This document shows positions 5,586 through 43,736 of a stretch of DNA of 43,736 nucleotides, one piece after another. A program made the position numbers and the translations under genes. Numbering within the stretch: the first letter of the stretch is position 1; every line of letters starts with the position of its first letter. A model generated the notes under the pieces. That model saw only the letters and a program-made list of their open reading frames with translations. It did no database searches and was not told the origin of the DNA. Source of the DNA: a virus; the UHGV virus genome UHGV-0197631, one strand, 5' to 3'.

Positions 5586-5747
5586 CGGTATTCACCTTTT
5601 TATTCACGCGCCGGATATCACCCGCTGCTTCACGGCGCAGCCAGTAGTTGTTCTCGTCAACATTTCGCCCTTCGGCGGGCAAAAGGTCGCCGCGGGCAGG
5701 GTCAGGAACTGACCGCCCTTTAACAGGTTTCACAAACATGAAGATTC

Positions 5748-15319: not shown

Positions 15320-15670
15320 TTACTCCTTCGAGCTACCAAATTTGTTACCGATTACTCGCATTGCAGCCCCACGAATAGCATCGACACCGATCAACCCAAC
15401 GCCACCACCAATGGCAACAGAAAGCGATTTAGGCCATCCGACATACTCAAGAGCGGATGCAAAAGTCAGCGTCAGAGCGCCGCAGAGCAAAATCTCGAGC
15501 GTTTTTCGCTTCCAGCCACCACCACCGCCAAAATAGGCAATGCGCAAGCCAGCCATAACGATCGACATAATTACTGCGCCCAGCGGTGTGTCTCCACGCC
15601 ACCAGCTCTGTAACAATTCAAGTAAGTCAGACCAGGAATGAGGATCGTTATGCATTTTCATAATTCCCAC
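15320..15670 (-). CDS. holin (possible dual-start holin/antiholin)
   Basis: 116 aa with hydrophobic helices; N-terminus MGIMKM offers alternative Met starts; directly upstream of endolysin. Confidence 0.65.
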   Translation of the reverse strand: MGIMKMHNDPHSWSDLLELLQSWWRGDTPLGAVIMSIVMAGLRIAYFGGGGGWKRKTLEILLCGALTLTFASALEYVGWPKSLSVAIGGGVGLIGVDAIRGAAMRVIGNKFGSSKE

Positions 15671-17089: not shown

Positions 17090-18085
17090 TTACGCCAGCA
17101 CGCCAATTGCCAGCGCACGATCGATAAAACGAAATATCAGCTCCAGCTGGGAGCCATACTTCTCTTCAAATGCCACGGTATCCGCATGCAGCTCGTCGTG
17201 ATGCTTTCTGCACAAAGGCAACACAAAGAGGTCATGCGCTTTTGTACCCATTCCCCCCTGACCGTGGCCTATCAGGTGGTGGGGATCATCAGCTGGCTTT
17301 CCACAACATGCACACGGCTGTGTCTTAACCCAGCGCGTGTACTTTTCATTAACCCAGCGGCGACGTTTTGGGCGTAACATAAAAGACTCCGGCGACTCCG
17401 GATCCACTTTCAGCGCCAGCACCTTTTTCGCTTTATCCTGGATAATGCTGGTGGCAGGAACCGAAGGAACAAGGTCACTCTCCCGGGTGACAGACGGCAC
17501 AACAGGCTTCGGTAATCTCAGTGCCTTACGGGCTGCACTTTCCGGTAAGGCATCCGCCAGGTCATTACGAACCAGCCACCAGCACAGTTCCGGCATTGTC
17601 ACAACGTGACTGTCATCAAAACCGAGATCACGGCGCACAACAGATAACACCCAGCGGGCACAGTTATCCGTTGCCATTGATTCCAGCCCTTCCGTGAACT
17701 GATCGCGCAACTGGTTATCGCAGTGCCAGCACAGACGGATTGCGCCCGGAGCGTGCCGCATTGTGGTCATGTTCTCGCTGTGCCAGTCGGAATGAGGCCA
17801 CTGGCAGCCTTTTTCACGAAGTAACCAGCTTTCAAGACATTCCACGCCACCAGCACGACGGATCACTGCCTCATTGCGGAACACGGCCCGAACGGCAGGA
17901 TCATCCGCCAGCGGTTGTGATGCCGCCGGAACGGCACCACTGGCGAAAGATGAATAACGTTCCGGCTCAGGCTCCAGCAGGACACGCCCCTGCATAAACA
18001 GGGGCATCAGCTCTGAACCTGGCCTGAACAATACGATCCCCATACGCGGGGCAATTTCAGGGGTCAGTAGTGCTCTCACGGTCAC
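17090..18085 (-). CDS. DUF968-like prophage protein with C-terminal Cys/His nuclease-like motif
   Basis: 331 aa; C-terminus CACCGKPADDPHHLIGHGQGGMGTKAHD...LCRKHHDELH; adjacent to Q as in Qin-type prophages. Confidence 0.55.
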   Translation of the reverse strand: MTVRALLTPEIAPRMGIVLFRPGSELMPLFMQGRVLLEPEPERYSSFASGAVPAASQPLADDPAVRAVFRNEAVIRRAGGVECLESWLLREKGCQWPHSDWHSENMTTMRHAPGAIRLCWHCDNQLRDQFTEGLESMATDNCARWVLSVVRRDLGFDDSHVVTMPELCWWLVRNDLADALPESAARKALRLPKPVVPSVTRESDLVPSVPATSIIQDKAKKVLALKVDPESPESFMLRPKRRRWVNEKYTRWVKTQPCACCGKPADDPHHLIGHGQGGMGTKAHDLFVLPLCRKHHDELHADTVAFEEKYGSQLELIFRFIDRALAIGVLA

Positions 18086-28347: not shown

Positions 28348-28697
28348 TGGAGCCATACAGCCTCACACTCGATGAGGCCTGTCATTTTCTCAAGATATCC
28401 AGACCGACTGCCATTAACTGGATACGCACAGGGCGTCTTCAGGCAACACGCAAAGATCCCACTAAGAATAAATCTCCTTACCTCACAACACGACAAGCCT
28501 GCATTGCGGCTCTTCAGTCTCCGCTGCATACTGTCCAGGTGAGCGCGGGTGATGGCATAACAGAGGAAAGAAAATGTCACTCTTCCGCAGAGGTGAAATA
28601 TGGTACGCCAGTTTCACATTGCCGAACGGTAAAAGATTTAAACAGTCTCTTGGAACAAAGGACAAAAGGCAGGCGACAGAACTCCATGACAAGCTAA
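28347..28697 (+). CDS. xis: excisionase-like HTH protein (Xis)
   Basis: [33 protein letters not shown] is an HTH_17/AlpA-Xis type motif; AGAGGTG Shine-Dalgarno upstream; ORF overlaps the int start, so the true C-terminus is uncertain. Confidence 0.5.
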
Positions 28698-29737
28698 AGG
28701 CTGAAGCATGGCGGGTCAGCAAACTTGGTGAAATACCTGATATAACGTTCGAGGAAGCGTGTGTCAGGTGGCTTGAAGAGAAAGCACATAAAAAATCACT
28801 GGACGATGACAAAAGCCGGATCGGATTCTGGCTTCAACATTTCGCAGGAATGCAACTAAGAGACATTACTGAATCAAAAATTTATTCAGCAATGCAGAAA
28901 ATGACGAACCGGCGTCATGAGGAAAACTGGAAACTCAGGGCAGAAGCATGCAGAAAAAAAGGGAAACCTGTTCCAGAATACACGCCAAAACCAGCGTCCG
29001 TTGCAACGAAGGCTACGCATCTTTCATTTATAAAGGCCCTACTAAGAGCCGCAGAGCGTGAATGGAAAATGCTGGATAAGGCACCAATTATTAAAGTGCC
29101 TCAACCAAAGAATAAACGGATCCGCTGGCTGGAGCCCCATGAAGCACAAAGGCTGATTGATGAATGTCCGGAGCCATTAAAGTCTGTTGTTGAATTTGCA
29201 CTGGCAACAGGCTTAAGACGCTCGAACATCATCAACCTTGAATGGCAACAAATAGATATGCAGCGCCGGGTGGCATGGATAAACCCGGAAGAGAGTAAAT
29301 CAAACCGCGCAATTGGCGTTGCGCTGAATGATACTGCATGTCGCGTATTGAAAAAACAAATCGGGAATCATCACCGTTGGGTATTTGTGTACAAGGAAAG
29401 CTGTACCAAACCAGACGGAACGAAAGCGCCAACAGTAAGGAAGATGCGGTATGACGCAAACACAGCCTGGAAAGCGGCGCTGAGACGGGCTGGTATTGAT
29501 GATTTCAGATTTCACGACTTGAGACACACCTGGGCAAGTTGGCTGGTTCAAGCCGGAGTCCCGTTGTCAGTGTTACAGGAAATGGGAGGCTGGGAGTCTA
29601 TCGAAATGGTTCGTCGATATGCTCACCTTGCACCTAATCACCTTACCGAACACGCACGGCAAATAGACTCGATCCTGAACCCATCGGTCCCAAATTTGTC
29701 CCAGTCAAAAAATAAGGAAGGTACAAATGATGTGTAA
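28574..29737 (+). CDS. int: tyrosine integrase (lambda-type)
   Basis: 387 aa; catalytic-region motifs ([10 protein letters not shown] ... RRYAHL); ends 14 nt before the tRNA-Thr-derived att core. Confidence 0.85.
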
Positions 29738-29800: not shown

Positions 29801-29984
29801 ACGTTAATATACTTTCAACTGTTTGAATAGTCACTCTAAAACTCATTTTTATCATTATAAAACATACTATTACCATAAATCACCTATTGATTAAAATTGA
29901 CAGGTGTTGATGTTTATTCCCGCAATTTACTTACACCAGCCGTTACATTACTGTAAGACAGAAATCCTCAACTGGAACCAGACT

Positions 29985-31283
29985 ATGGCGCTTTCAAGAC
30001 AAAAACTCACCTTCGAAAGACTTCGCAGATTTACTTTACCGGAAGGAAAAAAACAAACCTTCCTTTGGGATGCGGATGTTACAACTCTGGCATGCCGAGC
30101 AACTAGCGGAGCAAAAGCCTTCGTATTCCAAAGCGTTTATGCGGGAAAAACCCTTCGCATGACCATTGGCAACATTAATGACTGGAGGATTGATGAAGCA
30201 AGGAGCGAGGCAAGACGGTTACAAACATTGATCGATACCGGGATAGATCCGCGAATTGCTAAGGCTGTAAAAATCGCAGAAGCAGCATCTCAGCAGGCAG
30301 AATCACGTAAAACAAAAGTGACTTTCTCCGTCGCCTGGGAAGACTATCTTCAGGAATTGCGAAACGGTATCAGTGCAAAAACCAAGCGTCCATATTCTAC
30401 TCGATACATTGCAGATCACATCAACTTGTCCAGCCGTGGAGGGGAAAGTAAAAAAAGAGGTCAGGGCCCAACCTCAGCTGGACCATTAGCTTGTTTGCTC
30501 GACCTACCGCTATCAGATCTAACACCGGACTATATTGCTGCATGGCTGAGTACAGAAAGACAAAATAGACCGACTGTCACTGCCCATGCTTATCGCCTGC
30601 TGCGTGCTTTCATCAAATGGAGTAATTATCAGAAAAAATATCAGGGAATTATTTCTGGCGATCTTGCACAAGATTACAACGTAAAAAAAATGGTGCCAGT
30701 GTCTGCGAGCAAAGCCGATGATTGCTTGCAAAAAGAACAACTCAAAAGCTGGTTTAGATCCGTGCGTGGCCTTAGTAGCCCTGTTGCGTCAGCGTATCTT
30801 CAGGTGCTTTTACTTACCGGTGCGCGGCGTGAAGAAATTGCGTCACTTCGCTGGTCAGACGTCGATTTCAAATGGGCAAGCATGCGAATTAAAGACAAAA
30901 TCGAAGGAGAACGCATCATCCCTCTCACACCTTATGTTTCTAGCCTATTAAACGCGCTGTCCGCAGCCCCAAATGCTGAGGTAAGTAAGGAGAATTGGGT
31001 TTTCAGAAGTCATAGCAAAAGCGGCAAAATTATTGAACCTCGTTCAGCACACAATCGGGCTTTAGCGCAGGCTGAATTACCGCACATTAGTGTACATGGG
31101 CTACGCCGTAGTTTTGGTACGCTTGCCGAGTGGGTTGAAGTGCCAACTGGTATTGTTGCGCAGATTATGGGCCATAAGCCTAGTGCTCTTGCTGAGAAAC
31201 ACTATCGCCGCCGTCCACTGGATCTGCTGAGAAAATGGCATGAGAAAATTGAGACCTGGATCTTAGAACAGGCTGATATTTGA
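29985..31283 (+). CDS. tyrosine integrase (P4/CP4-57-type)
   Basis: Start at MALSRQKLTFERL; N-terminal arm-binding-like region, C-terminal catalytic region (HGLRRSFGT ... HY); second integrase abutting the same att core. Confidence 0.8.
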   Translation: MALSRQKLTFERLRRFTLPEGKKQTFLWDADVTTLACRATSGAKAFVFQSVYAGKTLRMTIGNINDWRIDEARSEARRLQTLIDTGIDPRIAKAVKIAEAASQQAESRKTKVTFSVAWEDYLQELRNGISAKTKRPYSTRYIADHINLSSRGGESKKRGQGPTSAGPLACLLDLPLSDLTPDYIAAWLSTERQNRPTVTAHAYRLLRAFIKWSNYQKKYQGIISGDLAQDYNVKKMVPVSASKADDCLQKEQLKSWFRSVRGLSSPVASAYLQVLLLTGARREEIASLRWSDVDFKWASMRIKDKIEGERIIPLTPYVSSLLNALSAAPNAEVSKENWVFRSHSKSGKIIEPRSAHNRALAQAELPHISVHGLRRSFGTLAEWVEVPTGIVAQIMGHKPSALAEKHYRRRPLDLLRKWHEKIETWILEQADI

Positions 31284-31418
31284 AAATAAATCGATGTTGA
31301 TTAGTGTTGATTTTATTATAAATCAATTAGTTATAAACAAATCGCTTAGTTGACATCACTAAGCTTTATGGTGACAATTCTTCCACTTTAATACATTAAC
31401 TCAAAGAGGATACATGGA

Positions 31419-31862
31419 ATGAATAATCCAGCTTTTGACATACCAGAGCGGGAGATGCTTATCATCATAGATTCAAATGCTGAATCAACATGTCCAGAAG
31501 TTAATTGGGCCGAATGCGAGGCACAGGTTAACGCTCTGTTTAAAAATGCCTATAGTGAAACTAAATGCTTCATTGCTCGTGCTAAGGTAAGATTCTCGCA
31601 GCACATGAGAAGTATTAGCCGTACAGTTTTGCAATGCTTCTCATCCCCACGTCTTCAATCCAAAAACCGTGCTTCAAGATCTCGCCGTAGCCATAGCTCT
31701 TCACGGAGCAGCGGCCGCTCAGCCAAATCTAGTGATAGTGACAGTTCCCCCTCGGACCCCTTACCTCTTCATAACCTATCTCTAAGTCTTCATTTAAATC
31801 TCTCTTCGCTTTTTTCACTTTTTAGCATGGCTCATACCTCTATCGACGAGGTGATCAAATGA
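31419..31862 (+). CDS. hypothetical protein with Ser/Arg-rich low-complexity C-terminus (possibly degraded)
   Basis: 147 aa; C-terminal half is SRSRRSHSSSRSSGRSAKSSDSDSS..., atypical for a folded protein. Confidence 0.25.
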   Translation: MNNPAFDIPEREMLIIIDSNAESTCPEVNWAECEAQVNALFKNAYSETKCFIARAKVRFSQHMRSISRTVLQCFSSPRLQSKNRASRSRRSHSSSRSSGRSAKSSDSDSSPSDPLPLHNLSLSLHLNLSSLFSLFSMAHTSIDEVIK

Positions 31863-32098
31863 GCGGCATCCTATTATCTCAGTTACCTAAAGATATTCCT
31901 GCATCTTCCCTGATTTACGTAAAGGAAGTCGCCAGCCTTCTCGGACTACAGCCTCAGACGATCAGGAAGTGGATTTGCCATGATTCATTGCCTGAAGGGC
32001 TACCAACACCAAAAAAGCTAAACAGAAAAAACTGCTGGCTAAGAACCGATATTGAATCCTTTATTGCAACAAAGTTTTCAAATAACAGTAAATTCTGA
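31859..32098 (+). CDS. alpA: AlpA-family transcriptional regulator / excisionase-like
   Basis: 79 aa with HTH_17-like motif (YVKEVASLLGLQPQTIRKWI); position after integrase as in CP4-57. Confidence 0.65.
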   Translation: MSGILLSQLPKDIPASSLIYVKEVASLLGLQPQTIRKWICHDSLPEGLPTPKKLNRKNCWLRTDIESFIATKFSNNSKF

Positions 32099-32106
32099 GG
32101 CAAAAG

Positions 32107-33498
32107 ATGGAAAAACTTCCTTACCCAATTGATGCCTTTCCAATAATCATGAGAAATGCTGCCTATGAAGAGCATAATATCACTAAAGCTCCCATGGCAA
32201 TGATAGGGTCTGCAATGTTGAGCGCAGTATCCTTGGCTTGCCAAAGCAAAGTTGATGTAGAAAGGCCTGGAGGACTTAAAGGTCCAACATCTCTTTTTTT
32301 TGTTACAATCGCAGAATCAGGCGAACGAAAAAGTGCAATTGACAAAAATGTATTTTCTGCGATACATGAATGCGAAAAAATGTTCGCACAGCAACACGCC
32401 GAAGAAATGAATTGGTATTCCGGTGCCGTTGAGATCTATGAAGCAGAAAAGAAAGCTCTATTTTCCAAATTAAAAATGCAGATAAAAAAAGGTCTTGATA
32501 CCTCTCAAACCAAAGATGATATCGATGAATTAAATTCAAAAAAGCCTGTCCTTCCCCGTTCACGAAAATTAATCATGAGTGACACCACTCCAGCGGCATT
32601 AAAAGATCATTTATCTGGGGAAGGTCGATCGGTCGGCATTCTCTCAGATGAAGGTGGTGTGGTGTTTGGTGGTTCGGCACTGAATAATCCTTCGCTCATC
32701 AATACAATATGGAGTGGCGGGGATGTACATATTGACAGGAAAAACAGGGCACCAGTGACTATATCTGATGCAAGACTCACATTATCAATTATGGTTCAGC
32801 AAAATTTATTGAATACATTTCAAAGAAGCAATAATAAAATTGCAAAGGATTCAGGATTTAATGCCAGATGCCTATTCAGCCATCCTGTATCAACTCAAGG
32901 GTATCGGCAGATATATAATCCAGTAATATCCAGGGAACATATGCCAATTTTTAACGGACGCATTAAGGAACTCATTTTATCTGGTTTACATAATGACAGA
33001 GTGCTGTTGCAATTTTCACCAGCCGCAGCCAGCGCATGGATCGACTGGTATAATTTCATTGAAACTCAAATGGCCTCAACAGGAGAACTATTTAATATCA
33101 GAGATTGTGCATCAAAAATTGCCGAGAACACAGCAAGAATCGCAGCATTAATGCACTTCTTCAGAGGTGATGAGGGCGATATAACCCTCATAGCTATGGA
33201 TGCGGCCGAAAAAATCAGCACATGGTATCTCGAAGAATATCAACATTTTTTCACAAGTAGCAATAATAGCAACGACGAAAATGAACTATTCGACTGGATT
33301 ATACATTATTGCCGTTACCATGGTCTGGCACGTTTGAAGAAAAACATCATTCTTCAATATGGACCAGTTCGACTCAGGAGTAAAAAGACTATAGAACCAT
33401 TGCTGAATAACCTTGCGTATACTCAGAAAATTCTTTTTGAAACTAGGGGAAGAACCACTTACTTAATCCCAGTAAAATTAGGATCACGGCATTTATAA
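32107..33498 (+). CDS. DUF3987-like protein (YfjI-like, P4-type island replication-associated)
   Basis: 463 aa; synteny int-alpA-DUF3987 matches CP4-57-type islands. Confidence 0.55.
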   Translation: MEKLPYPIDAFPIIMRNAAYEEHNITKAPMAMIGSAMLSAVSLACQSKVDVERPGGLKGPTSLFFVTIAESGERKSAIDKNVFSAIHECEKMFAQQHAEEMNWYSGAVEIYEAEKKALFSKLKMQIKKGLDTSQTKDDIDELNSKKPVLPRSRKLIMSDTTPAALKDHLSGEGRSVGILSDEGGVVFGGSALNNPSLINTIWSGGDVHIDRKNRAPVTISDARLTLSIMVQQNLLNTFQRSNNKIAKDSGFNARCLFSHPVSTQGYRQIYNPVISREHMPIFNGRIKELILSGLHNDRVLLQFSPAAASAWIDWYNFIETQMASTGELFNIRDCASKIAENTARIAALMHFFRGDEGDITLIAMDAAEKISTWYLEEYQHFFTSSNNSNDENELFDWIIHYCRYHGLARLKKNIILQYGPVRLRSKKTIEPLLNNLAYTQKILFETRGRTTYLIPVKLGSRHL

Positions 33499-33690
33499 GT
33501 TAAATAGAATGAATCTAACTGCAGAGTTATTTTTACGTAAAAAACAAACTCTCAGTGAAATAAATGACACAAAATCAAGTTGGATAGGTATTATTACACC
33601 TGACCTTATTATTTATATCTATTCATCTTGTTATATATACATTATACAACATCAACTGAATTAATCCTTATAGATAGATGGGTATATACT

Positions 33691-34308
33691 ATGAAACAAT
33701 ATCAAGGATCACATGGTCTTCATGTGGCAGCCTGGCGTGATAGCATAATTGATGTTCTTGACAATGCTTCAAATGAATTTAGTCGCATTATGGCTGTGCG
33801 AGTAGACCTTCACCATCCAAGGATATTGGATAACGGAGACACTGTTTGCTGCTTCCCTAATCTCAAGTCAGGTGAAATTTCGAGGTTTATTAACTCCCTA
33901 AAAGCGATGCTTGCTGCTCATGAATATCGACGAGCACAGAATGGAACCCGAATCTACCCAAACACTTTACGCGATATGTGGGCTAAGGAGTACTCTCAAT
34001 CAGGAAAATGCCATTATCATGCCTGTCTTGTATTTAATAAAGATGCATATTACCACCTTGGTAGCTATGATGATGATTGCCTGAGGGGCATGATTATAAA
34101 CGCCTGGTACAGCGCATTAGGGTTACAGCCTGAGGATTGTCCTGGGCTGGTTCATTTCCCTGAAAACGGGAAATATATTCTAGACAAAAATAAACCAGGT
34201 TTTATTTTTGATTATCATGCCCTACTAAAGCGGCTCGAATATCTTACCAAGGTTGACTCGAAGGTTTTTGGGGAAGGTGATAGGAATTTTGGGTGCAGTC
34301 GGGGTTAA
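33691..34308 (+). CDS. inovirus Gp2-family protein (YfjJ-like)
   Basis: Start at MKQYQGSHG; synteny after DUF3987 gene. Confidence 0.5.
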   Translation: MKQYQGSHGLHVAAWRDSIIDVLDNASNEFSRIMAVRVDLHHPRILDNGDTVCCFPNLKSGEISRFINSLKAMLAAHEYRRAQNGTRIYPNTLRDMWAKEYSQSGKCHYHACLVFNKDAYYHLGSYDDDCLRGMIINAWYSALGLQPEDCPGLVHFPENGKYILDKNKPGFIFDYHALLKRLEYLTKVDSKVFGEGDRNFGCSRG

Positions 34309-34361: not shown

Positions 34362-35336
34362 CTACAGAAGACGAATTAACTCTTCCCGTGAAATCCTGCG
34401 ACGATGTACCTCATCATGGCAAACATTACAGAGAGTAATTAAGTTATCCAGTGTATTTTCTCCGCCATCAGCATGATGTTCAATATGATGTAACTCGAGG
34501 AATGTTCTGGGGTCATTTGCGATTTTACGGGCATGAGACCAGTGGCAGTGCCTGCATGCATGATGGTCACGCTCAAGTACAGCGACACGTACAGGATCGG
34601 GGATCTTTCGGTCATGCACTTCAGCCTGTCGATCTTCCTCGAGTAAATAAGCTCCGACTTCTAGCTCCGGTCTACCGGAATTTTTGGTGGCGATTGGCCA
34701 GCCATCTTCTGTACGTAGCTCACGTGTTCGTCGCGCCCACTCCTTGCTATCGTTTGCAAGGTATCGTAGTTCTTCGCCAGTCACGGGACGGCCAACGTTC
34801 TTACGCAGATAAGACAGAATTTTATCTTTCGTGGAGATTTTGCTTCGTCTGAGGACATTAGCTTCATTCCACCGCAGAGCTGCTTCCCTGTCCTGTTCTG
34901 CTGTCATCAGCGCATAAACGTCGGTTTTAAGAACGTTAATCGCACTGGCATGGAGCTCTTCCAGTGTAACCTCTCCTTGTTCGATCATTTCCTTCAACGT
35001 AGTGCCGCTTAATACGGACCAACCAAACTGCACACGCAGCTCTCTGATCCTTCTGGCATATTCACTGATACCCGCAACAACCATCAGTTCGTCACCATGG
35101 ATGATGACGCCGGGATATTTGAGTAAATAAGCCAGAATTCGGTCACGGGCTGAATTGCAATTCTCATCATTCATCAAAGAACTGCCTAAATCCCGCAGCA
35201 AATGATTGGCGGGGATTAATGCCAAAACCTGTTCCCGTAGGGAATCATCCTTGAGCTTAAACTCAAAGTCGGTAATCAACGCCAGAAGCTGTTTACGCAG
35301 CGTTTCCGGTACGCTCTTCTTCGATCTTCTCGCCAT
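34362..35336 (-). CDS. HNH endonuclease with tandem N-terminal repeat domains (putative restriction endonuclease)
   Basis: C-terminal HNH motif (HHACRHCHWSH...ELHHIEHHADGGENTLDNLITLCNVCHDEVH); two similar internal segments (EYARRIRELRVQFGWSV / EWARRTRELRTEDGWPI); overlaps the methyltransferase gene by 44 nt. Confidence 0.65.
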   Translation of the reverse strand: MARRSKKSVPETLRKQLLALITDFEFKLKDDSLREQVLALIPANHLLRDLGSSLMNDENCNSARDRILAYLLKYPGVIIHGDELMVVAGISEYARRIRELRVQFGWSVLSGTTLKEMIEQGEVTLEELHASAINVLKTDVYALMTAEQDREAALRWNEANVLRRSKISTKDKILSYLRKNVGRPVTGEELRYLANDSKEWARRTRELRTEDGWPIATKNSGRPELEVGAYLLEEDRQAEVHDRKIPDPVRVAVLERDHHACRHCHWSHARKIANDPRTFLELHHIEHHADGGENTLDNLITLCNVCHDEVHRRRISREELIRLL

Positions 35337-36423
35337 TTTGAATTAGGTATTCCATTAAATTGAGAACGTAGGTCGCAATCTTCTGCGCAAAAACTGGTGG
35401 TACTGCATTGCCAATTTGCCTTGCGATTTCGGTTTTTGAACCCACAAAAACAAATTCATCCGGGAAACTCATCAGGCGCGCGGCTTCACGATGCGTAATT
35501 GGACGATGTTGCTCTGGATGTAGATAACGCCCCTTCTCAGGCTTAAAGAACTCCGTGCGGATCGTGACAGAAGGCCTCTCCCACCACAAACGGCCAAACA
35601 AATCCGTTCCACCCGAGGTTTTTTTAATCCAGCAGGCAGGGGTAATGTCAGGTCTATTCTTTTGCAAATCAAACCGGTTTCCCCCTACCGGAACAGCTCG
35701 GTAGCGTTCCTGCGAAAGCGCAGTTGGATTTCGACCAAAGTGGAGATCTAATGGGGGTGGAAGATCACGCACCTCAGTCCCAACCGGCTCAGGCAAATCA
35801 CCTATAAAATCTCTGACTGTCAGCCAGGCTGGTAGATCCGCCCCCTTATCAGGATTCTGGTGCGACTGTACAGGTGGGAACGTTGGGATGCTATTCAGCA
35901 GGAATCGCTCTTTTTTAATTCCAATTGCAATAGCACGTTTGCGCGTCTGCGGAGCCCCGTAGTCGGCTGTGTTAAGGACAGAAGGATTCAGAAGCAGAAA
36001 ACCCATGCTTTCAGCACGAGCACAAATGTCCTGAAATTCATCACTGGACAAGAGGCCCGGAACATTTTCCATCACAAATACAGAAGCAGAAGACCTCTCA
36101 ATGATATCCATATACGGCTCCCAGAGCGCCCGTCGATGGTCCCTTTCTCGGTTCTTGTTGAGCAGGCTGAATCCCTGGCATGGCGGGCCGCCGATAACAA
36201 TATCAGCCTCAGGAATGCTGTTTTCAGCAATCCACTCTTCGATGTTCGCTACAATGCCATGCTCGCCAAAGTTGGCATTGTATGTACTGATAGCCGCCTT
36301 GTCATTGTCCAGAGCTAGGACGCTTTCAAAATGAGCGCCATTTTCCCCCTTCATGAAGCCGCAGGATAAACCGCCAGCGCCACAAAACAGATCAATGACT
36401 TTTAATTTATTGATTTTACTCAT
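35293..36423 (-). CDS. DNA (cytosine-5)-methyltransferase
   Basis: Motif I FCGAGG, motif IV PPCQGFS, ENV motif; 376 aa. Confidence 0.85.
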   Translation of the reverse strand: MSKINKLKVIDLFCGAGGLSCGFMKGENGAHFESVLALDNDKAAISTYNANFGEHGIVANIEEWIAENSIPEADIVIGGPPCQGFSLLNKNRERDHRRALWEPYMDIIERSSASVFVMENVPGLLSSDEFQDICARAESMGFLLLNPSVLNTADYGAPQTRKRAIAIGIKKERFLLNSIPTFPPVQSHQNPDKGADLPAWLTVRDFIGDLPEPVGTEVRDLPPPLDLHFGRNPTALSQERYRAVPVGGNRFDLQKNRPDITPACWIKKTSGGTDLFGRLWWERPSVTIRTEFFKPEKGRYLHPEQHRPITHREAARLMSFPDEFVFVGSKTEIARQIGNAVPPVFAQKIATYVLNLMEYLIQNGEKIEEERTGNAA

Positions 36424-36734
36424 TAAAATATAATCCTAGTTCCTACATACATATTCATGGTTAAGTATATCATAATGCGAAACTGTATGTATCCACAGTA
36501 ACAAGGTGATACGTTGTGAAAAATGCTTGGAAGTATATTGCTAGCATCATATCCCTTAATATCGATGAAAAGCAGTTTAATTATTGCTCGTAGCGGACTT
36601 TTCGACGCTTCGGGCCGTCCGCTCAGTGCCATTAGCAGACATTTTTGATATGTGGTTCCTACTAACCTGATTGTCTTAAAGAGTTTATAATTGTGCTGGA
36701 AAAGAAATTCTGATCATTATGTAGGAGAAACGTT

Positions 36735-37571
36735 GTGGCTAACGAAAATACCGAGTACGAGAAACTTACCCAAGAGATCTACCAGGCCATATGCAATGCT
36801 GAGGGAGTTAAGAATTTATCAGTTCAGCATAATGTAAAAGTCCCAGGAAAATCTGGCTGTAACCACCAGATAGATGTTTACTGGGAATTTGAAATAATGG
36901 GTGTAACACACCGCGTGGCCATCGAATGTAAAAACTATTCAAGCGAAGTTTCTGTTGGGAAAGTACGCGACTTTTTCGGTGTACTACATGATATCAGTAA
37001 TGTGAATGGTATTTTCGTGACCAAAGTTGGTTACCAAAGTGGAGCTGTAAAATTTGCCAATCACTACGGTATCAATCTGAAAGAAATACGATTCCCAACA
37101 GCAACAGACTGGAAAGGAAGAGTAAAAGATATTGTCATAACAATCACTGCGTTCTTTGCTAATATCAAAGAGCGAAACATTCATTTTGATTTTGAGTGGA
37201 TCCGTGAAAACACAAATGTGAAAGAAGGAGATCGCCTAGTACTTTCAGGCATGGCTGATGAGATAAAAATAGTTGATGCGAATGGAGAACTAATCACAAC
37301 CCTATACGACATTGAAAATGAACTCCCGCGAGATGTTGAGATAATTGATAAAACCTTTGAAAAAAAATTCAATGAGGCATTCATTACTACTCCATCTGGC
37401 GATAAATTTAAAATTTACGGGATCAGCTATTTGTACGATGTTGTTTCTGAATCTGAAACATCGATTAGCGAAGGCGATTTGATTGCTCGTGCAATACTCA
37501 AAGATGTCGGTTCGGGAGCAATAAAATTCTTTGACCAAAGCGGGAATATTCGTGATGTTCGGGATGTGTAA
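36735..37571 (+). CDS. Mrr-like PD-(D/E)xK nuclease domain protein with uncharacterised C-terminal domain
   Basis: GTG start with AGGAGA Shine-Dalgarno; N-terminal QIDVYWEF...VAIECKNY (D...ExK) with Mrr-type context; ~150 aa C-terminal region of no recognisable family; AT-rich. Confidence 0.5.
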   Translation: MANENTEYEKLTQEIYQAICNAEGVKNLSVQHNVKVPGKSGCNHQIDVYWEFEIMGVTHRVAIECKNYSSEVSVGKVRDFFGVLHDISNVNGIFVTKVGYQSGAVKFANHYGINLKEIRFPTATDWKGRVKDIVITITAFFANIKERNIHFDFEWIRENTNVKEGDRLVLSGMADEIKIVDANGELITTLYDIENELPRDVEIIDKTFEKKFNEAFITTPSGDKFKIYGISYLYDVVSESETSISEGDLIARAILKDVGSGAIKFFDQSGNIRDVRDV

Positions 37572-37839
37572 CTAAATATATCAAGTGAAGTTATTCGTAA
37601 TGTGAACAGCCATGACTTTCGTGGCTATTTTCATTGCAGGTAAAAAACTTACTTCAGCTTCTCGCGCAAAGCTGTTCTTGATGTCTCCGAGACTGTCCGC
37701 CCCCTGCCAAAAGCTGACATTGCCAACATCGAAGGACATTGCTCTATGAGGCGCAGGTCAAACGCATTACAGGATCTTAGTGAGCAGGTTTCGGCATTCA
37801 AAAAATAAAGGCAAGGTGGAAACCACCATGCCTATTAAA

Positions 37840-38868
37840 CTAAGCGTTATCTATGTATTTCAATGCATAGCTTTCGAAGCTGTTTATTTTATTAAAATAA
37901 TCAGGAATAAATGCATGGACAAATGTATCAAGGTCAGTATTAATCGTGTTTGTATTGATTAATTCAATCATGTGTTCAGGTTCGCTGTCCAAAAAGAGAA
38001 TTGCAAGTATGAGACCGAACTTTGGTGCTATTTCTCTAAATATCAAATAAGTAAGTTCACCGTAAGGCTTCACGCTTTCATTCAAAATGCCAGAGATATA
38101 CTCCCTGCCATTCATGCCGCGTTTATTATAGGAATCTATAATTTCGTAAAAATCGCTGCCATCGATATCAACTTCAGGGTCAAAATCATTGAGTGATACA
38201 TCGTTGTTTAGACAATATCTTACTGTTGAAATACACAAGTAAAGAAAAAGAAGGGTTCCCAGACTACCTTGGCGTTTTACTGGATTTCCGGACTCTGATA
38301 GGTATCGATATTGGCAATAGTACGCAATGGTTTCACACAAACTAATATGACGTATCAAGAGACTATCATCATTACAAGCGCGTGATATACTAAAATCAGC
38401 GGCATGACCGAGTTCATGCACAAAGAGGTCTGTAGATGTCACTCCAAATGGATCATCTTGAGTAAAAATGAAATGTTCATCATCTCTGTTGGAAATACAA
38501 AAACCCTCAGAACTTTTTCTGATTTGATTCTCAATATGAAGCCACTCAACCTTGTTCAGATTAACTTTTAGGCAATTCTCAACAAAATCGCGCGCTACAT
38601 TAAATTCACGCTCTGAAATAGGATTGCCTAATGAAGATGGGTCAGTGGAACTCAAACGCTTCAGAAATTCAGAAGAAAAATATAAAGGCGAAACCAGATC
38701 AACAAGAGCCGTGACTGAATTCAGGAGTTTATTGTGCACATCCCCTACAATTTCTTCGCCAGTCCTGTGTAATGCCTCATCAAATTCCTGGAAAGAGTTT
38801 CCATTTTTAGTAGCAATCACGCATTGCGTTTCAAGTTCATAGTATTTTTTTCGCAGTATTGAATGCAT
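37840..38868 (-). CDS. HExxH motif protein (putative metallopeptidase-like), unknown function
   Basis: Single HExxH (VHELGHAAD) in 342 aa; AT-rich; convergent with the Mrr-like gene. Confidence 0.4.
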   Translation of the reverse strand: MHSILRKKYYELETQCVIATKNGNSFQEFDEALHRTGEEIVGDVHNKLLNSVTALVDLVSPLYFSSEFLKRLSSTDPSSLGNPISEREFNVARDFVENCLKVNLNKVEWLHIENQIRKSSEGFCISNRDDEHFIFTQDDPFGVTSTDLFVHELGHAADFSISRACNDDSLLIRHISLCETIAYYCQYRYLSESGNPVKRQGSLGTLLFLYLCISTVRYCLNNDVSLNDFDPEVDIDGSDFYEIIDSYNKRGMNGREYISGILNESVKPYGELTYLIFREIAPKFGLILAILFLDSEPEHMIELINTNTINTDLDTFVHAFIPDYFNKINSFESYALKYIDNA

Positions 38869-39387
38869 AATTCTCACCAAATATAAATTAAGTATATTAT
38901 TTAAGAACGATATCCTTCTTTTGCAGAATCACTATATCATCTTCTTTCTTACTTTGGCAGGTTTAACAATCCGTCTGTAATGTCTAGCATTCTAAATGCG
39001 TTCTATGCCTTTAATGTACCCCTGCTGTCGATGTTATATCACCTTGCTTTTCGGTGTACCGGTAGCGTGATAAGATGCGTATTGAATCATTGACACTGAT
39101 TGATGTAGAACTAGACATCAACTCAACATAAGTTAAATTTTCCCGTCAGAAACGGCCTGCTCGACATTTATTAAAAAAGGCAATATTTGTCCTTTATCAA
39201 CTCAGTTGTTAGCAAAAGTCCGAACCTCCGCTCATCGCTCGAAGCGGTCTGTTGATGTTTACTGTGAAACAGGCAGATTCGTGCAAGTAGCGGACAATGT
39301 AAGAAAAAATAACGGGTCGGACTAACCTTGCGAAGGCTTTCTAAGTCTGTCTGCAAACATCTCTTCAAAAGGCTGAGGCCCTTATTG

Positions 39388-39678
39388 GGTAATGACTCCA
39401 ACTTACTGATAGTGTTTTATGTTCAGATAATGCCCGATGACCTTGTAATGCAGCTCCACCGATTTTGAGAACGACAGTGACTTCCGTCCCAGCCTTGCCA
39501 GATGTTGTCTCAGATTCAGGTTATGTCGCTCAATGCGCTGAGTGTAACGCTTGCTGATAACGTGCAGCTTTCCCTTCAGGCGTGATTCATACAGCGGCCA
39601 GCCATCCGTCATCCATACCACGACCTCAAAGGCCGACAGCAGGCCCAGAAGACGCTCCAGCGTGGCCAACGTGCGTTA
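39388..39678 (-). mobile_element. IS1 remnant (terminal inverted repeat plus 3' end of insB)
   Basis: Begins with IS1 terminal repeat GGTAATGACTCCAACTTA...; encodes the InsB C-terminus ([66 protein letters not shown]); similarity stops near 39678. Confidence 0.8.
39403..39669 (-). pseudogene. insB: insB C-terminal fragment of IS1
   Basis: 88-codon ORF matching the InsB C-terminus from memory; N-terminal part of the transposase absent. Confidence 0.75.
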
Positions 39679-39773
39679 CCTAACAATAAACCTGTTTAAA
39701 TATCCAGATAAAAACATTCAATCTGGGTCAAATGAGTGATACAGTTTCACCCATAAGACCCAATGGAGGCAAT

Positions 39774-41207
39774 ATGTCTGAATTTGAATTACTGGCGCAG
39801 GATCTGCTTGAGAAAGCAGAAGCGGAAGAACAACTGCGACAGGAAAATGATAAAAAGCTGCTCGGGCAGGTGCTGGAAATCTATGACCAGAAGTACGTGG
39901 CTGAACTGCTTAGAAAAGTTGGTAAAAATGAGTGGAGTCGCGAGACTCTTAATCGCTGGATTAATGGTAAGTGCTCACCTAAGACGCTGACGTTAGCCGA
40001 AGAGGAACTTCTACGAAAAATGCTTCCGGAAGCGCCTGCACATCACCCTGACTATGCCTTCCGGTTTATTGACCTGTTTGCTGGGATTGGAGGTATACGG
40101 AAGGGCTTCGAAACCATCGGTGGCCAGTGCGTTTTTACCAGTGAATGGAATAAAGAGGCTGTGCGCACATATAAAGCTAACTGGTTTAACGATGCTCAGG
40201 AACACACTTTCAATCTCGATATTCGGGAAGTCACGCTCAGTGATAAACCTGAAGTACCTGAAAACGATGCCTATGCTTACATTAATGAGCATGTGCCGGA
40301 TCATGATGTACTTCTAGCAGGTTTCCCCTGTCAACCGTTCAGCCTTGCGGGCGTAAGCAAGAAAAACTCGCTCGGGCGCGCGCATGGTTTCGAATGTGAG
40401 GCTCAGGGAACGCTTTTCTTCGATGTGGCGCGTATTATACGCGCAAAAAAACCTGCCATCTTTGTTCTTGAAAACGTTAAAAACCTGAAGAGCCATGACA
40501 AGGGTAAAACCTTTAAAGTCATCATGGATACCCTCGACGAACTGGGCTATGAAGTTGCGGATGCAGCTGAGATGGGCAAAAACGATCCTAAAGTTATCGA
40601 CGGAAAGCACTTTTTACCTCAGCACCGAGAACGTATCGTTTTGGTCGGTTTCCGTCGTGATCTGAACATTCACCAGGGCTTTACCCTGCGCGATATTAGT
40701 CGTTTTTATCCGGAACAGCGTCCGTCATTTGGCGAACTGCTGGAACCCGTGGTTGACAGCAAATATATACTGACGCCGAAACTCTGGGAGTATCTCTATA
40801 ACTACGCCAAAAAGCACGCAGCTAAGGGTAACGGATTCGGTTTTGGCCTCGTTAATCCTGAAAATAAAGAAAGCATTGCCCGTACGCTTTCTGCTCGCTA
40901 TCACAAAGACGGGTCTGAAATTCTGATAGACCGTGGCTGGGATATGGCCACAGGTGAAACAGACTTCGCGAACGAAGAAAATCAGGCGCATCGGCCCCGC
41001 AGGCTGACTCCACGAGAGTGCGCGCGCCTTATGGGTTTTGAAAAAGTAGATGGCAGGCCTTTTCGCATTCCTGTGTCAGACACTCAGTCGTACAGGCAGT
41101 TCGGTAACTCCGTAGTGGTGCCCGTGTTTGAAGCCGTAGCCAAACTGCTTGAACCTTATATCCTGAAAGCGGTTAATGCCGATTCGTGCAAGGTTGAACG
41201 AATCTGA
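39774..41207 (+). CDS. ecoRIIM: EcoRII-type DNA (cytosine-5)-methyltransferase (Dcm-like, CCWGG specificity inferred)
   Basis: From [12 protein letters not shown] with GGAGG Shine-Dalgarno; motifs FAGIGG, PCQPFS, ENV; collinear with E. coli Dcm and with M.EcoRII as I recall it. Confidence 0.85.
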
Positions 41208-41212
41208 TCGCT

Positions 41213-41236
41213 CCTCCCGGTATTTATGCCGGGAGA
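41213..41236. terminator. bidirectional hairpin between convergent ecoRIIM and ecoRIIR
   Basis: TCCCGG tatttatg CCGGGA stem-loop in the 33-nt gap between the two stops. Confidence 0.45.
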
Positions 41237-41240
41237 TAAT

Positions 41241-42449
41241 CTATGGAATATCTGCGTAAAGCCCTGTCAGCTCAGCAATAAACGCACCTAGCGTCATTAG
41301 CTCAGCTCTCACCGCCTCCGGGTATTTTTTGTGCAGCGATGATGGCACGACCAATCTGACACCCGACTCCCGCATCTCCCGATATTGAGCCAGAGAAACT
41401 CCCTCTTGGAGTGTAAACAGATGCACCTGATGAATTTTATCGGCCTCATTCAGTATCTGACGCCAGCGATCCTTACAGGTAGTCTTGACTGCCAGCATGC
41501 GCAGATTTTCTACGGGAAACTCAGTATCGTGGTAAGCCCCTGCGGAAGGGAAAAGGAAATCGGGTTTTTTATTACCTTCTGTGATGGCCTGCGTCGCAAA
41601 GTGTCGCAGGCCGTGCTCAATGAATAGATGCTCCAGGTGCAGTTCCAGCGACTTCCCGGCTCTGGATTTACGGCGATTGCTGACAGAATTGGCCAGCGCA
41701 ATAAATTCATCCACAGAGCCAAATCCTTTCCGGATGATATCCAGAACATGCAGTTCCTCAACCAATAGAAATATGTCGTACTCCACGCGCCGGCGGTCAA
41801 GAAGTTGCTCATCCGGATCAAGGGAATTTTTCACATAATGGCTGGCTGCATACTGAATAATTTCACTTCCCGACGGAAAGCGCAGGTGCCAGTCTTCAGG
41901 TAGAATATATTTATGATTTACTGGCGCTTGCTGTAGAGATAGTCCGCCTAGAATCTGTCCTGCGGGGCCGGATATAAGCGCTCCGGGTATAACTTCACCA
42001 ATAGCGGTCTCAATGACGTCCTCTTCATCAGTGCTGGCGCATACCCAAATATTTACTTCCTTACAGTCCCCCCCTTGCTCATCAAGCTTGAAAGCCAGGA
42101 GCGTCAGAGCCCCTGTATTTTCAGGATTCTGAAGTGGGCTGCCTCTACCCCAGCGGGTAATCCTTTTTTCATTCCGGGTTTTACCAAAATGACGGCTGTT
42201 ATAATAAATTGCCCGGGCTTCGCTGTCAGGGCAATCATGCGATGACACATGTGCGGTGAGAAAAACCGAAGGGTTCAGTTCACGGGTATGGTTGATAGAC
42301 GGAAAGAGTTTTTCAACGATACCTGAAGGGATATAAAGCCCTACCTGGTGACCACCTGTTGCGCCGGTATCGTTGGCGGAAAGGCGTTTGATGTAGACGA
42401 AGTAATTCTCACATGCGATCTCAAGTAGCCAGTTGTGGAAAACCGACAT
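41241..42449 (-). CDS. ecoRIIR: EcoRII-type restriction endonuclease
   Basis: 402 aa from MSVFHNWLLEIACENYFVYIKRLSANDTGATGGHQVGLYIP, matching my recollection of R.EcoRII; GGGG Shine-Dalgarno 6 nt upstream of ATG 42449; convergent with the methyltransferase as in the EcoRII system. Confidence 0.85.
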   Translation of the reverse strand: MSVFHNWLLEIACENYFVYIKRLSANDTGATGGHQVGLYIPSGIVEKLFPSINHTRELNPSVFLTAHVSSHDCPDSEARAIYYNSRHFGKTRNEKRITRWGRGSPLQNPENTGALTLLAFKLDEQGGDCKEVNIWVCASTDEEDVIETAIGEVIPGALISGPAGQILGGLSLQQAPVNHKYILPEDWHLRFPSGSEIIQYAASHYVKNSLDPDEQLLDRRRVEYDIFLLVEELHVLDIIRKGFGSVDEFIALANSVSNRRKSRAGKSLELHLEHLFIEHGLRHFATQAITEGNKKPDFLFPSAGAYHDTEFPVENLRMLAVKTTCKDRWRQILNEADKIHQVHLFTLQEGVSLAQYREMRESGVRLVVPSSLHKKYPEAVRAELMTLGAFIAELTGLYADIP

Positions 42450-42607
42450 AAGCATCCCCTGTTACCCTGAAACTCTACTCACCATTTTTTCATGATTATA
42501 TACAAACAGCCAGAAAGGCTGTTACAGACGATTTGATCTGCAACCTATTGGTTAAATTAATGTATCAAAAACGATGGTTTTTGTGACAGTCTTGAAAAGT
42601 CCTGACT

Positions 42608-42632
42608 TGTCATTTTCAGAAGACGACTGCAC
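42608..42632. repeat. Tn402/Tn5053-family 25-bp terminal inverted repeat (IRt-like)
   Basis: TGTCATTTTCAGAAGACGACTGCAC, close to the remembered IRt of Tn402/class 1 integrons; coincides with an abrupt rise in GC content. Confidence 0.55.
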
Positions 42633-42750
42633 CAATTGACGGGGCGTAACGCCAGGTGTGCAGTCGGCTCCTGACCACGCAATATCAGAAGTCATCTGCA
42701 CCAATCTCGACTATGCTCAATACTCGTGTGCACCAAAGCGAGGTGTGAGC

Positions 42751-43233
42751 ATGGCGTCAGACACATTACCAATTGCCGAGCAGGGCGTGGCCACCCTGCC
42801 CGATGCGGCATGGGCACAGGCCCGGCACCGGACCGAAATCATCGGGCCGCTGGCAGCGCTTGAAGTGGTTGGGCATGAAGCCGCCGATGCCGCTGCTCAA
42901 GCGCTGGGCCTATCCAGGCGGCAGGTGTATGTCCTGATCCGGCGTGCCCGGCAAGGTGCTGGGTTTGTGACGGACCTGGTTCCCGGCCAGTCCGGCGGCG
43001 GAAAAGGCAAGGGACGCTTGCCGGAATCAGTTGAGCGCATCATCCGCGAGTTGCTGCAAAAGCGCTTCCTGACCAAGCAGAAGCGTAGCCTGGCGGCGTT
43101 CCACCGCGAGGTCGCGCAGGCTTGCAAAGCGCAAAAGCTACGGGTGCCGGCGCGCAACACTTTGGCCCTGCGGATCGCCGGCCTCGACCCGCTCAAGGCC
43201 ACTCGCCGCCGGGAAGGGGTCGGTTCCGGCTGA
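42751..43233 (+). pseudogene. tniA: tniA (Tn402/Tn5053-family transposase), truncated after ~160 codons
   Basis: N-terminus IAEQGVATLPDAAWAQARHRTEIIGPLAA...GLSRRQVYVLIRRARQGAGFVTDLVPGQSGGGKGKGRLPE matches TniA from memory; reading frame ends at the inserted Tn3-family inverted repeat. Confidence 0.65.
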
Positions 43234-43253
43234 GGGCGAAATGACACCCTAAG
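43216..43253. repeat. 38-bp terminal inverted repeat of a Tn3-family transposon
   Basis: GGGGTCGGTTCCGGCTGAGGGCGAAATGACACCCTAAG: starts GGGG, ends TAAG, and contains the tnpA stop codon, as in Tn3/Tn21-family ends. Confidence 0.55.
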
Positions 43254-43736
43254 CTTTCGGTTCCTTGGGCCAAAGATATTCGCCAGTCAGTAGAATGTGC
43301 GCCCAGCCCAATGGGGATATGTGGGGAAGAAATTCAGGGGGAACATCCAACCCTTCGTTCCGCCGCTCCGTGACGGCATGACCAAGATGGACGGTATTCC
43401 AGTAAATGATCACCGCAGTCAATAAATTGAGCCCAGCGATTCGGTAGTGCTGCCCCTCTGTCGTGCGATCGCGAATTTCCCCCTGCCTCCCGATACGGAG
43501 CGCATTTTTGAGCGCATGGTGGGCCTCTCCCTTGTTAAGACCGATCTGAGCACGCCGCTGCATGTCCGTATCCAGGATCCACTCAATAATGAAAAGGGTC
43601 CGTTCAATACGACCAACTTCACGAAGCGCAACTGCAAGGTTGTTTTGTCGTGGGTAAGAAGCGAGCTTGCGCAGGAGTTGGCTGGGCCTGATTTTGCCAG
43701 CGGTCATCGTCGCGGCACAACGGAAAATATCAGGCC
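43249..43736 (-). CDS. tnpA: Tn3-family transposase TnpA, C-terminal part (gene continues beyond window end)
   Basis: C-terminal region (LLTAVIIYWNTVHLGHAVTERR...HISPLGWAHILLTGEYLW) typical of Tn3-family TnpA; stop lies inside the 38-bp repeat. Confidence 0.65.
   Translation of the reverse strand, partial: PDIFRCAATMTAGKIRPSQLLRKLASYPRQNNLAVALREVGRIERTLFIIEWILDTDMQRRAQIGLNKGEAHHALKNALRIGRQGEIRDRTTEGQHYRIAGLNLLTAVIIYWNTVHLGHAVTERRNEGLDVPPEFLPHISPLGWAHILLTGEYLWPKEPKA

Follow-up and report, generated by a model that had tools for sequence, protein, structure and literature searches.

Lit, encoded by prophage e14, is a single-gene abortive-infection system in which a zinc metalloprotease cleaves EF-Tu. 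In the Hachiman, AVAST and canu pairs, a pro-nuclease of the metallo-beta-lactamase (MBL) fold is activated by a trypsin-like or caspase protease encoded in conserved linkage with it (Tuck et al. 2026, PMC12799240). Validated hotspots have been placed between gpA and gpQ in P2 and between psu and int in P4 (Rousset et al. 2022, PMC9122126), and a 2026 survey of P2/P4 hotspots states that the recombination processes 'still need to be elucidated'. Here, we examine two neighboring genes, A and B, in UHGV virus genome UHGV-0197631. The window, by which we mean the whole stretch of DNA analyzed, comprises 43,736 nucleotides (nt), and positions are counted from its first letter. A and B are convergent, with stop codons 268 nt apart, and lie in an AT-rich block of ~2.6 kb (38% GC). 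We show that this block consists of two unrelated, autonomous single-gene cassettes stacked in the cargo array of a CP4-57-like island. The two genes are very probably independent of each other, and the overall explanation that fits best, which we hold with somewhat better than even confidence, is that A is a Type IV-like nuclease and B an anti-phage or lysogenic-conversion peptidase.

The cassettes are delimited by two kinds of short imperfect palindrome, a left-type motif (~TCCGCTCTGTGCCAAAAGCGGA, ~22 nt) and a right-type motif (~TCCGCTnnTCGCTCnnAGCGGA, ~22 nt). The features of the block are as follows.

36584-36639, no strand assigned: junction J1, left edge of the A cassette, with a degenerate right-type motif (TTGCTCGTAGCGGAC), a ~20-nt spacer and a left-type motif (TCCGCTCAGTGCCATTAGCAGA, 36618-36639)
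36735-37571, + strand: gene A, 278 amino acids (aa), Mrr/AF1548-type PD-(D/E)xK nuclease with an orphan C-terminal domain
37608-37626, + strand: terminator-like hairpin of A with a T-rich tail, 37 nt past the A stop codon and inside the A cassette
37654-37717, no strand assigned: junction J2, between the cassettes, with a right-type motif (TCAGCTTCTCGCGCAAAGCTGT, 37654-37675), a 20-nt spacer and a left-type motif (TCCGCCCCCTGCCAAAAGCTGA, 37696-37717)
37815-37827, - strand: terminator-like hairpin of B (GGTGGTTTCCACC followed by a T-rich tail), just past the B stop codon
37840-38868, - strand: gene B, 342 aa, predicted compact cytoplasmic gluzincin metallopeptidase
38931-38960, - strand: candidate sigma-70-like promoter of B, CTGCCA-18-TATAGT with an extended TG, a consensus match only, ~65 nt upstream of the ATG
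39227-39294, no strand assigned: junction J3, right edge of the B cassette, with a right-type motif (TCCGCTCATCGCTCGAAGCGGT, 39227-39248), a spacer and a weak left-type motif (GCAGATTCGTGCAAGTAGCGGA)

We define a cassette operationally as a segment with a left-type motif at one end and a co-oriented right-type motif at the other, whose homology to other copies stops inside the motifs. A and B each form such a unit. The junctions of the array are composite, consisting of a right-type motif, a spacer of ~20 nt and a left-type motif, and three of them lie in the window. All homology breakpoints fall inside the short motifs. A locus from a metagenome-assembled genome that carries A alone (L008) has DNA in common with the window at 36626-37672 only (96.8% nt identity), starting within J1 and stopping within J2, and a locus that carries B alone (L003) has 37705-39245 only (90% nt identity), from J2 to J3. 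In a Yersinia island (L093), an A+B block starts at 36619 and stops at 39247; beyond J3, the next cassette of our window is cut off by IS1. B is found alone at 90%, 77% and 75% nt identity. Each gene has a terminator-like hairpin in its own cassette, that of A being present in near-identical form in L008, and B also has a promoter-like site. The separation extends to the family level: a hidden Markov model (HMM) of the B family gave no match in 83 A-family loci (814 kb, including L008, whose A protein is 98% identical), and an A-family HMM gave none in 20 B-family loci.

The left-type motif at J1 scored 27.6 bits in a position-weight-matrix scan, with 0.04 chance matches expected in the window. 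That the scan found these copies alone in the 43.7-kb window is circular, since they were training instances; the same motifs are present in training-independent loci (L001, L002, L005, L088 and L089). No Rfam match was found at the junctions.

Gene A begins with a GTG codon, seven bases after the Shine-Dalgarno sequence AGGAG, and contains HQIDVYWEF...AIECKNY, where an initial annotation of this DNA had recognized an Mrr-type signature. This assignment held. A matches Pfam Mrr_cat (PF04471) over residues 17-115 (E 4.3e-10, 40.2 bits against a gathering score of 21), its nuclease domain (about residues 1-125) has the restriction-endonuclease-like alpha/beta core fold, and 35 homologues, reaching down to 46% identity, all retain the catalytic residues D47, E64 and K66. 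As a nuclease of the Mrr type, A is catalytically intact. Its family, drawn from Proteobacteria, Bacteroidota, Firmicutes, Cyanobacteria and Acidobacteria, comprises at least 1,288 clusters at 90% identity. Nearly all members have 272-283 aa and align end to end, and the databases name them only 'restriction endonuclease'; it is an uncharacterized new subfamily of a known kind, the Mrr nucleases.

The same annotation had been unable to place the C-terminal ~150 aa of A in any family, and this also proved correct. The domain (about residues 128-278) is beta-rich, with long strands at 133-151, 203-218 and 224-245. Neither Pfam, PADLOC nor PHROGs assigned it to a family when searched with the whole protein (PHROGs also with the isolated domain), NCBIfam gave merely a sub-threshold AbrB match, and a PDB profile search found no relative. 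Triphosphate-tunnel enzymes were disregarded as relatives, with a Foldseek probability of 0.06-0.08. A profile of the domain run against 5.8 billion proteins retrieved the same two-domain architecture only, which indicates that the domain is particular to this family and permanently joined to the nuclease. We recognized no modified-base reader in A (SRA, EVE/YTH/ASCH, Mrr-N winged helix, DUF3578 and similar). In PADLOC-DB v2, which covers systems to 2023, the best match was mREase_IV, at a non-significant E of 3.5e-4 over 57 residues of the catalytic motif.

A has no cognate methylase. Among 148 immediate neighbors of A homologues in 78 loci, only about seven are methylases, four of these being HsdM subunits (N6_Mtase plus HsdM_N), and the same set contains HsdS-type specificity domains; in L005, L008 and L093, A is present without any methylase. 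No Pfam family occurs more than six times among these neighbors, which include integrases, Type I restriction-modification (R-M) subunits, AbiH, helicases and HNH nucleases.

Two more distant relatives of A were seen. Residues 4-137 are 35% identical (E 2e-13) to an unannotated or hypothetical open reading frame (ORF) of phi3T/SPbeta-type Bacillus phages, at ~62.3-66.6 kb in seven records (phi3T and SPbeta hybrids), where the C-terminal domain of A has no counterpart. On a viral contig (L178), a 293-aa gene at 4997-5878 on the - strand, directly downstream of a left-type motif, weakly matches the A-family HMM (5.4e-12) and is probably another Mrr-type nuclease in the same kind of slot.

Gene B starts with ATG, and its 342-aa length is the same as that of the database entries. 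The HExxH motif that had been noted in VHELGHAAD is genuine: the active site comprises H151-E152-x-x-H155 and E179, all invariant in seven close members of the family and at least 90% conserved in 57 members reaching down to 15% identity. The spacing to E179 is that of a gluzincin third ligand, which puts the motif in clan MA(E). By structure comparison, the whole protein models as a compact M3/M32/M2-like gluzincin with a thermolysin/neurolysin-like fold, so that the earlier statement that B has no other recognizable domain holds at the level of sequence and not at that of structure. By motif and modeled fold, B is a catalytically intact gluzincin of the neurolysin-like kind. Sequence profiles gave little: no match in Pfam, PADLOC or PHROGs, a faint NCBIfam pepF match around HExxH (15.2 bits against a 490-bit cut-off), Peptidase_M3 in two of 57 family members at E 0.014, and a best PDB profile hit that was not significant (E 0.024). 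B falls outside families M3, M32 and M2 by profile threshold and by their two-lobe length of ~500-680 aa, and it is 30-50% shorter than any characterized member of its fold. No signal peptide or membrane segment was apparent by eye in the translation.

Both ORFs lie where the initial annotation had drawn them, in convergent orientation and with the motifs it quoted, and its view that neither resembles a restriction enzyme that can be named is borne out by the lack of a close match to any characterized restriction enzyme or housekeeping peptidase. Of the structure comparisons it had called for, that of B placed the protein by fold and that of the C-terminal domain of A yielded no credible match.

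The B family is small, with seven clusters in a word-indexed search and 69 representatives among 1.84 billion proteins in an exhaustive profile search. None of 5,426 complete E. coli genomes gave a DNA match, whether at megablast or at blastn sensitivity, and B had no match in phage GenBank records. Relatives with 69% identity occupy the gpS-gpV position of P2-like prophages, and one with 73% identity adjoins Psu and an Ogr/Delta gene on a 3.4-kb contig, a context that suggests a P4-like satellite. In a CP4-type island, a relative (90%) precedes a YeeP-like GTPase and a DUF932 gene; others are found in an integrative element of Pectobacterium (46%), next to genes for SIR2 and PRTase-CE (30%) and, in the case of one distant plasmid relative, between insertion sequence (IS) elements on a Klebsiella plasmid (34%). 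Further relatives occur in metagenomic contexts that resemble mobile genetic elements. The neighbors of B are of mobile-element type and include no recurrent partner, and its cassette holds no companion sensor or immunity gene. One of the 148 neighbors of A homologues is a full-length Peptidase_M2 (ACE-like, E 1e-99), which we treat as a coincidence even though the fold of B is M2/M3/M32-like.

The surroundings of the block consist of the following features.

29904-34308, + strand: island backbone, with an integrase (29904-31283), a DUF3987/YfjI-like gene (32107-33498) and a YagK/YfjJ gene (33628-34308)
34362-36423, - strand: left R-M cassette, a C5 methylase (35293-36423) overlapping an HNH endonuclease (34362-35336)
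39403-43707, no strand assigned: later mosaic insertion with an IS1 fragment, an EcoRII-like R-M system and a Tn3 fragment
39403-39669: IS1 transposase fragment (truncated)
39732-41207: EcoRII-like methylase
41241-42455: EcoRII-like endonuclease
43249-43707: Tn3 transposase fragment

The backbone genes form a CP4-57-like integrative island, whose integrase carries Arm-DNA-bind_3 (Pfam) and is, in our reading, P4-type. Of the places returned for the exact proteins, most have the same backbone (9 of 10 in the case of A, 8 of 8 in that of B). The left R-M genes match Pfam DNA_methylase (1.3e-59) and HNH (4.8e-09) as well as PADLOC models, and EcoRII-N/EcoRII-C (Pfam) were found in identical copies of the island. 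Every island copy examined has an HNH-linked 5-methylcytosine (m5C) methylase, and most also have one of EcoRII type. An island that is otherwise identical (L103, 1939-5527) has IS1 followed by Gabija at the EcoRII position, adjoining B; this Gabija is complete (GajA, E 4.7e-232; GajB, E 1e-261), and a YeeP-like GTPase is also present. This exchange of an EcoRII block for Gabija beside IS1 and Tn3 sequences indicates that the right part of the island is an IS-mediated mosaic, in which the cassette after B was cut off. A and B sit in a defense-rich cargo array that holds two R-M systems in this copy and Gabija in the identical island. The genes had earlier been described as lower in GC than their surroundings and placed between two R-M systems of an integrase-bearing defense island. 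The base composition agrees (0.387 in A and 0.369 in B, compared with 0.48-0.49 in the R-M genes on either side and 0.53 in the prophage to the left), as does the position, with the HNH/C5 methylase system on the left, the EcoRII-like system on the right, and complete Gabija beside B in the identical island.

In the left cassette, the start of the HNH endonuclease gene shares 44 nt with the methylase gene. The long N-terminal region of this endonuclease gives winged-helix-like matches (repeats), and the best NCBIfam model for its HNH domain is the IscB HNH (2.7e-11, well under its cut-off). Two tyrosine integrase genes, 28574-29737 and 29904-31283, stand 166 nt apart; the former closes a prophage-like region (~1-28 kb) and the latter opens the CP4-57-like island. 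This adjacency suggests that two elements lie in tandem at a single attachment site. The 43.7-kb window contains no tRNA or tmRNA gene.

The boundary motifs recur in other elements. At least 120 viral contigs contain the left-type motif, as judged by a scan for its exact pattern. In P2-like phages, it lies in the Z/fun locus (from the tail-fiber genes to the sheath gene FI) or between gpS and gpV. One flank of the motif is conserved and the other variable, with 73 cargo clusters at ~60% identity in 80 loci (L122-L201). Across 784 kb, 62 right-type cores are on the same strand as the left-type motif and one is on the opposite strand, where chance predicts 0.09 per strand; 27 of the 62 lie immediately upstream of a left-type motif and another 27 lie 0.6-4 kb downstream. 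In phage P2 itself (L242), left-type and right-type motifs, at 15336-15357 and 17433-17454 respectively, flank fun(Z), the gene for T5 exclusion. A left-type motif follows B in Pectobacterium and, ~120 nt past the B stop codon in the same relative orientation, in three P2-like loci. In Serratia marcescens (L005, 6399-8943), a left/right pair encloses a 386-aa gene and then an A homologue (85% identity), whether as a cassette of two genes or with a decayed internal junction; the 386-aa protein has no Pfam or PADLOC match and no relationship to the 402-aa protein encoded upstream of A in L008. In 763 kb of non-enterobacterial A-family loci, the motif occurs at background level only.

Defense genes in the cargo past the motif include PD-T7-1, PD-T7-5, PARIS/AriAB, RT-protease, RT-TIR, Shedu SduA, AbiL, AbiG, GmrSD and TIR proteins, along with several PADLOC candidate families. 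The same slots also carry non-defense cargo such as DinI, thymidylate synthase, arginase and FMN reductase. The motifs were considered as P2 terminators and rejected, the terminators annotated in P2 being other sequences. A hairpin selected for its structure was likewise rejected: the one variable stem position shows no covariation, and its C·A mismatch, seen in 24 of 62 cases, is at the level expected of independent arms. The arms therefore appear to be conserved as sequence rather than as a stem. Sites recognized by a protein or used through homology fit the motifs better than a structural RNA or a terminator, and the motifs may be a recombination site for the exchange of accessory genes. 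The title of Nilsson et al. 2004 (Mol Biol Evol 21:1) reportedly invokes site-specific recombination in P2-like phages, and the motif may already have been described there. We found no description of it in the literature searched, which left out the likeliest sources, Nilsson et al. 2004 and Odegrip et al. 2006.

We propose that A could act as a solitary Mrr-type DNA endonuclease, with target recognition most likely supplied by its fixed C-terminal domain. It would be a Type IV-like restriction nuclease not directed at self, whose target would be a DNA modification or a form of DNA other than the host's own m5C marks. This proposal follows from the lack of a cognate methylase together with the co-residence of A with an HNH-linked, and mostly also an EcoRII-type, m5C methylase. 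We consider it probable that A is a restriction or defense nuclease. B, for its part, might cleave a phage or host peptide or protein during infection and might do so alone, as a single-gene lysogenic-conversion or anti-phage factor, given that it stands alone in accessory positions and that similar motif-bounded slots carry validated defense systems. That B is a defense gene is a tentative proposal, to which we give slightly less than even chances. The two proteins would not need to act together, and a separate defense role for each is plausible from genomic context.

Several points weigh against this interpretation. The exact A+B block has moved as a unit between two island contexts, which leaves room for synergy. 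Neither family matches PADLOC beyond the weak catalytic-motif match of A. Target recognition by the C-terminal domain of A is pure inference, as this domain has no Pfam or PDB relative. The fold class of B is usual in oligopeptidases and carboxypeptidases of short peptides and would equally suit a non-defense role, and the P4-satellite context of B rests on one 3.4-kb contig.

It is conceivable that A and B form a functional nuclease/protease module in which the peptidase activates, matures or restrains the nuclease, or in which both attack the same invader, and that their adjacency is selected. The exact A and B proteins each occur on more than 100 contigs and are adjacent in every place returned, spanning genomes of Citrobacter, Enterobacter and Yersinia (several Enterobacterales genera); the Yersinia island has the 2.63-kb block from 36619 to 39247 at 99.4% identity and no other DNA in common with the window; and nuclease-protease pairs are a recognized theme in immunity (Tuck et al., PMC12799240). 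The adjacency on these contigs, together with the Yersinia block, indicates that the two cassettes have moved together at least once, which we read as co-transfer of neighbors in an array rather than as dependence. However, the more than 100 co-occurrences are near-identical copies and thus represent one or two evolutionary events, whereas at family level the genes co-occur in 0 of 83 and 0 of 20 loci. Furthermore, A is found alone at 97% nt identity and B at 90%, 77% and 75%; the genes are convergent, with terminator-like hairpins of their own and a cassette junction in between; and the documented pairs combine an MBL nuclease with a trypsin-like or caspase protease, neither of which matches A or B. 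The two-way HMM searches and the clustering of neighbors led us to reject the pair, and we regard it as very unlikely. The initial annotation had left the choice between two single-gene systems and a nuclease/protease pair; the former stands, and the latter falls on the null searches, the solitary copies and the intervening junction, as does the conserved co-occurrence across genomes that had been thought worth seeking. A hidden third partner was also considered and dismissed: the genes that precede A in Serratia (386 aa) and L008 (402 aa) are mutually unrelated and match no defense model.

A different partner for A could be the adjacent, divergent C5 methylase (35293-36423), which lies 311 nt away and would make A a Type II endonuclease; a methylase does adjoin some A-family members (7 of 148 neighbors). 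We consider this highly improbable, since the methylase has an HNH endonuclease of its own, with which it overlaps and is co-transcribed, the junction at 36584-36639 separates it from A, and A travels without it in L008, L093, L005 and the great majority of the 78 loci. The linkage expected of a Type II R-M system is absent, and the pairing was rejected. An alternative of greater weight, though still an unlikely one in our estimate, is that B has nothing to do with defense and is a mobile-element-borne oligopeptidase riding in accessory slots, where it could act on signaling or toxic peptides or serve nutrition, counter-host-defense or prophage maintenance. Its fold is like that of M32 carboxypeptidases, M3 oligoendopeptidase F, ACE and neurolysin, which act on short peptides; PADLOC and PHROGs have no match for it; DinI, thymidylate synthase, arginase and FMN reductase show that such slots hold other cargo; and its cassette is devoid of a companion sensor or immunity gene. 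Nevertheless, B recurs where defense genes dominate (the R-M/Gabija array, the P2 gpS-gpV slot, beside Psu and beside SIR2/PRTase-CE), and its family is rare, patchy, horizontally transferred and low in GC, as is typical of defense cargo. At 342 aa, it is also 30-50% shorter than the housekeeping members of the fold and lacks their family signatures (pepF, 15 against 490 bits).

With two independent cassettes as our preferred reading, most of the promise rests with B, as a possible new type of effector, and with the boundary motifs. Should B protect against phage, bacterial immunity would gain a protease whose fold has not been seen there before, and a single-gene system in which to look for the trigger and substrate of B. 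Should A be modification-dependent, its orphan C-terminal domain would constitute a new modified-DNA reader and a potential epigenetic tool like the MspJI and PvuRts1I families. The motifs provide a testable feature for the unexplained rapid swapping of defense genes at variable loci of phages and satellites, and could serve as a search key for undiscovered defense cargo. It is feasible, if rather improbable, that all of this holds jointly, with B a new class of single-gene anti-phage effector, A a new Type IV-like family with a novel reader, and both the cargo of a motif-driven cassette-exchange system that went unrecognized before or has long been forgotten. The paired 22-nt motifs would then be recombination sites that move defense genes among P2-like phages, P4-like satellites and CP4-57-like islands. 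If true, this would bear directly on how hotspots swap their contents.

Compared with Type IV enzymes of the Mrr/MspJI type, A has the reverse domain order, its nuclease being N-terminal. Its second domain is not a winged helix, SRA, EVE, YTH or other recognizable reader, and its match to the PADLOC mREase_IV model is confined to the catalytic motif (E 3.5e-4). B differs from the M32, M3 and M2 peptidases (carboxypeptidase Taq, oligoendopeptidase F/neurolysin/Dcp and ACE) in that these have 490-680 aa against its 342 aa and share only ~10-13% identity with it; they are housekeeping genes, whereas B is encoded by mobile elements and falls far under every family threshold. Like Lit, B is a prophage- or island-borne, single-gene, predicted cytoplasmic HExxH metalloprotease, and the mechanism we propose for it is of this kind by analogy; no sequence relationship between the two was detected (B has no Pfam-A match), and the fold of B is M3/M32-like. 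The Hachiman, AVAST and canu pairs (HamMAB) resemble the present locus in that a nuclease gene adjoins a protease gene in an immune locus, but here the nuclease is of the PD-(D/E)xK type and the protease a predicted gluzincin, the genes are convergent and in separate cassettes, and linkage is 0 of 83 and 0 of 20.

The array as a whole is reminiscent of integron cassettes, which are likewise single-gene units, promoter-proximal or promoter-containing, with sharp edges at short imperfect palindromes, found singly or reordered among hosts and often carrying defense cargo. In contrast to integron attC sites, the boundary motifs show no R/L core (GTTRRRY) by eye, and a cassette carries not a single attC but two motifs that differ from each other. 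The cargo genes here stand in either orientation, and the window integrases match only the generic Phage_integrase Pfam family, no IntI-specific search having been made. The gpA-gpQ and psu-int hotspots of Rousset et al. differ from the Z/fun and gpS-gpV slots, and the present copy resides in a CP4-57-like island and not in a phage. The fun(Z) conversion cassette of P2 shares with A and B a low-GC accessory gene, a fixed slot and the same left/right motifs, and a B homologue occupies the P2-type gpS-gpV slot.

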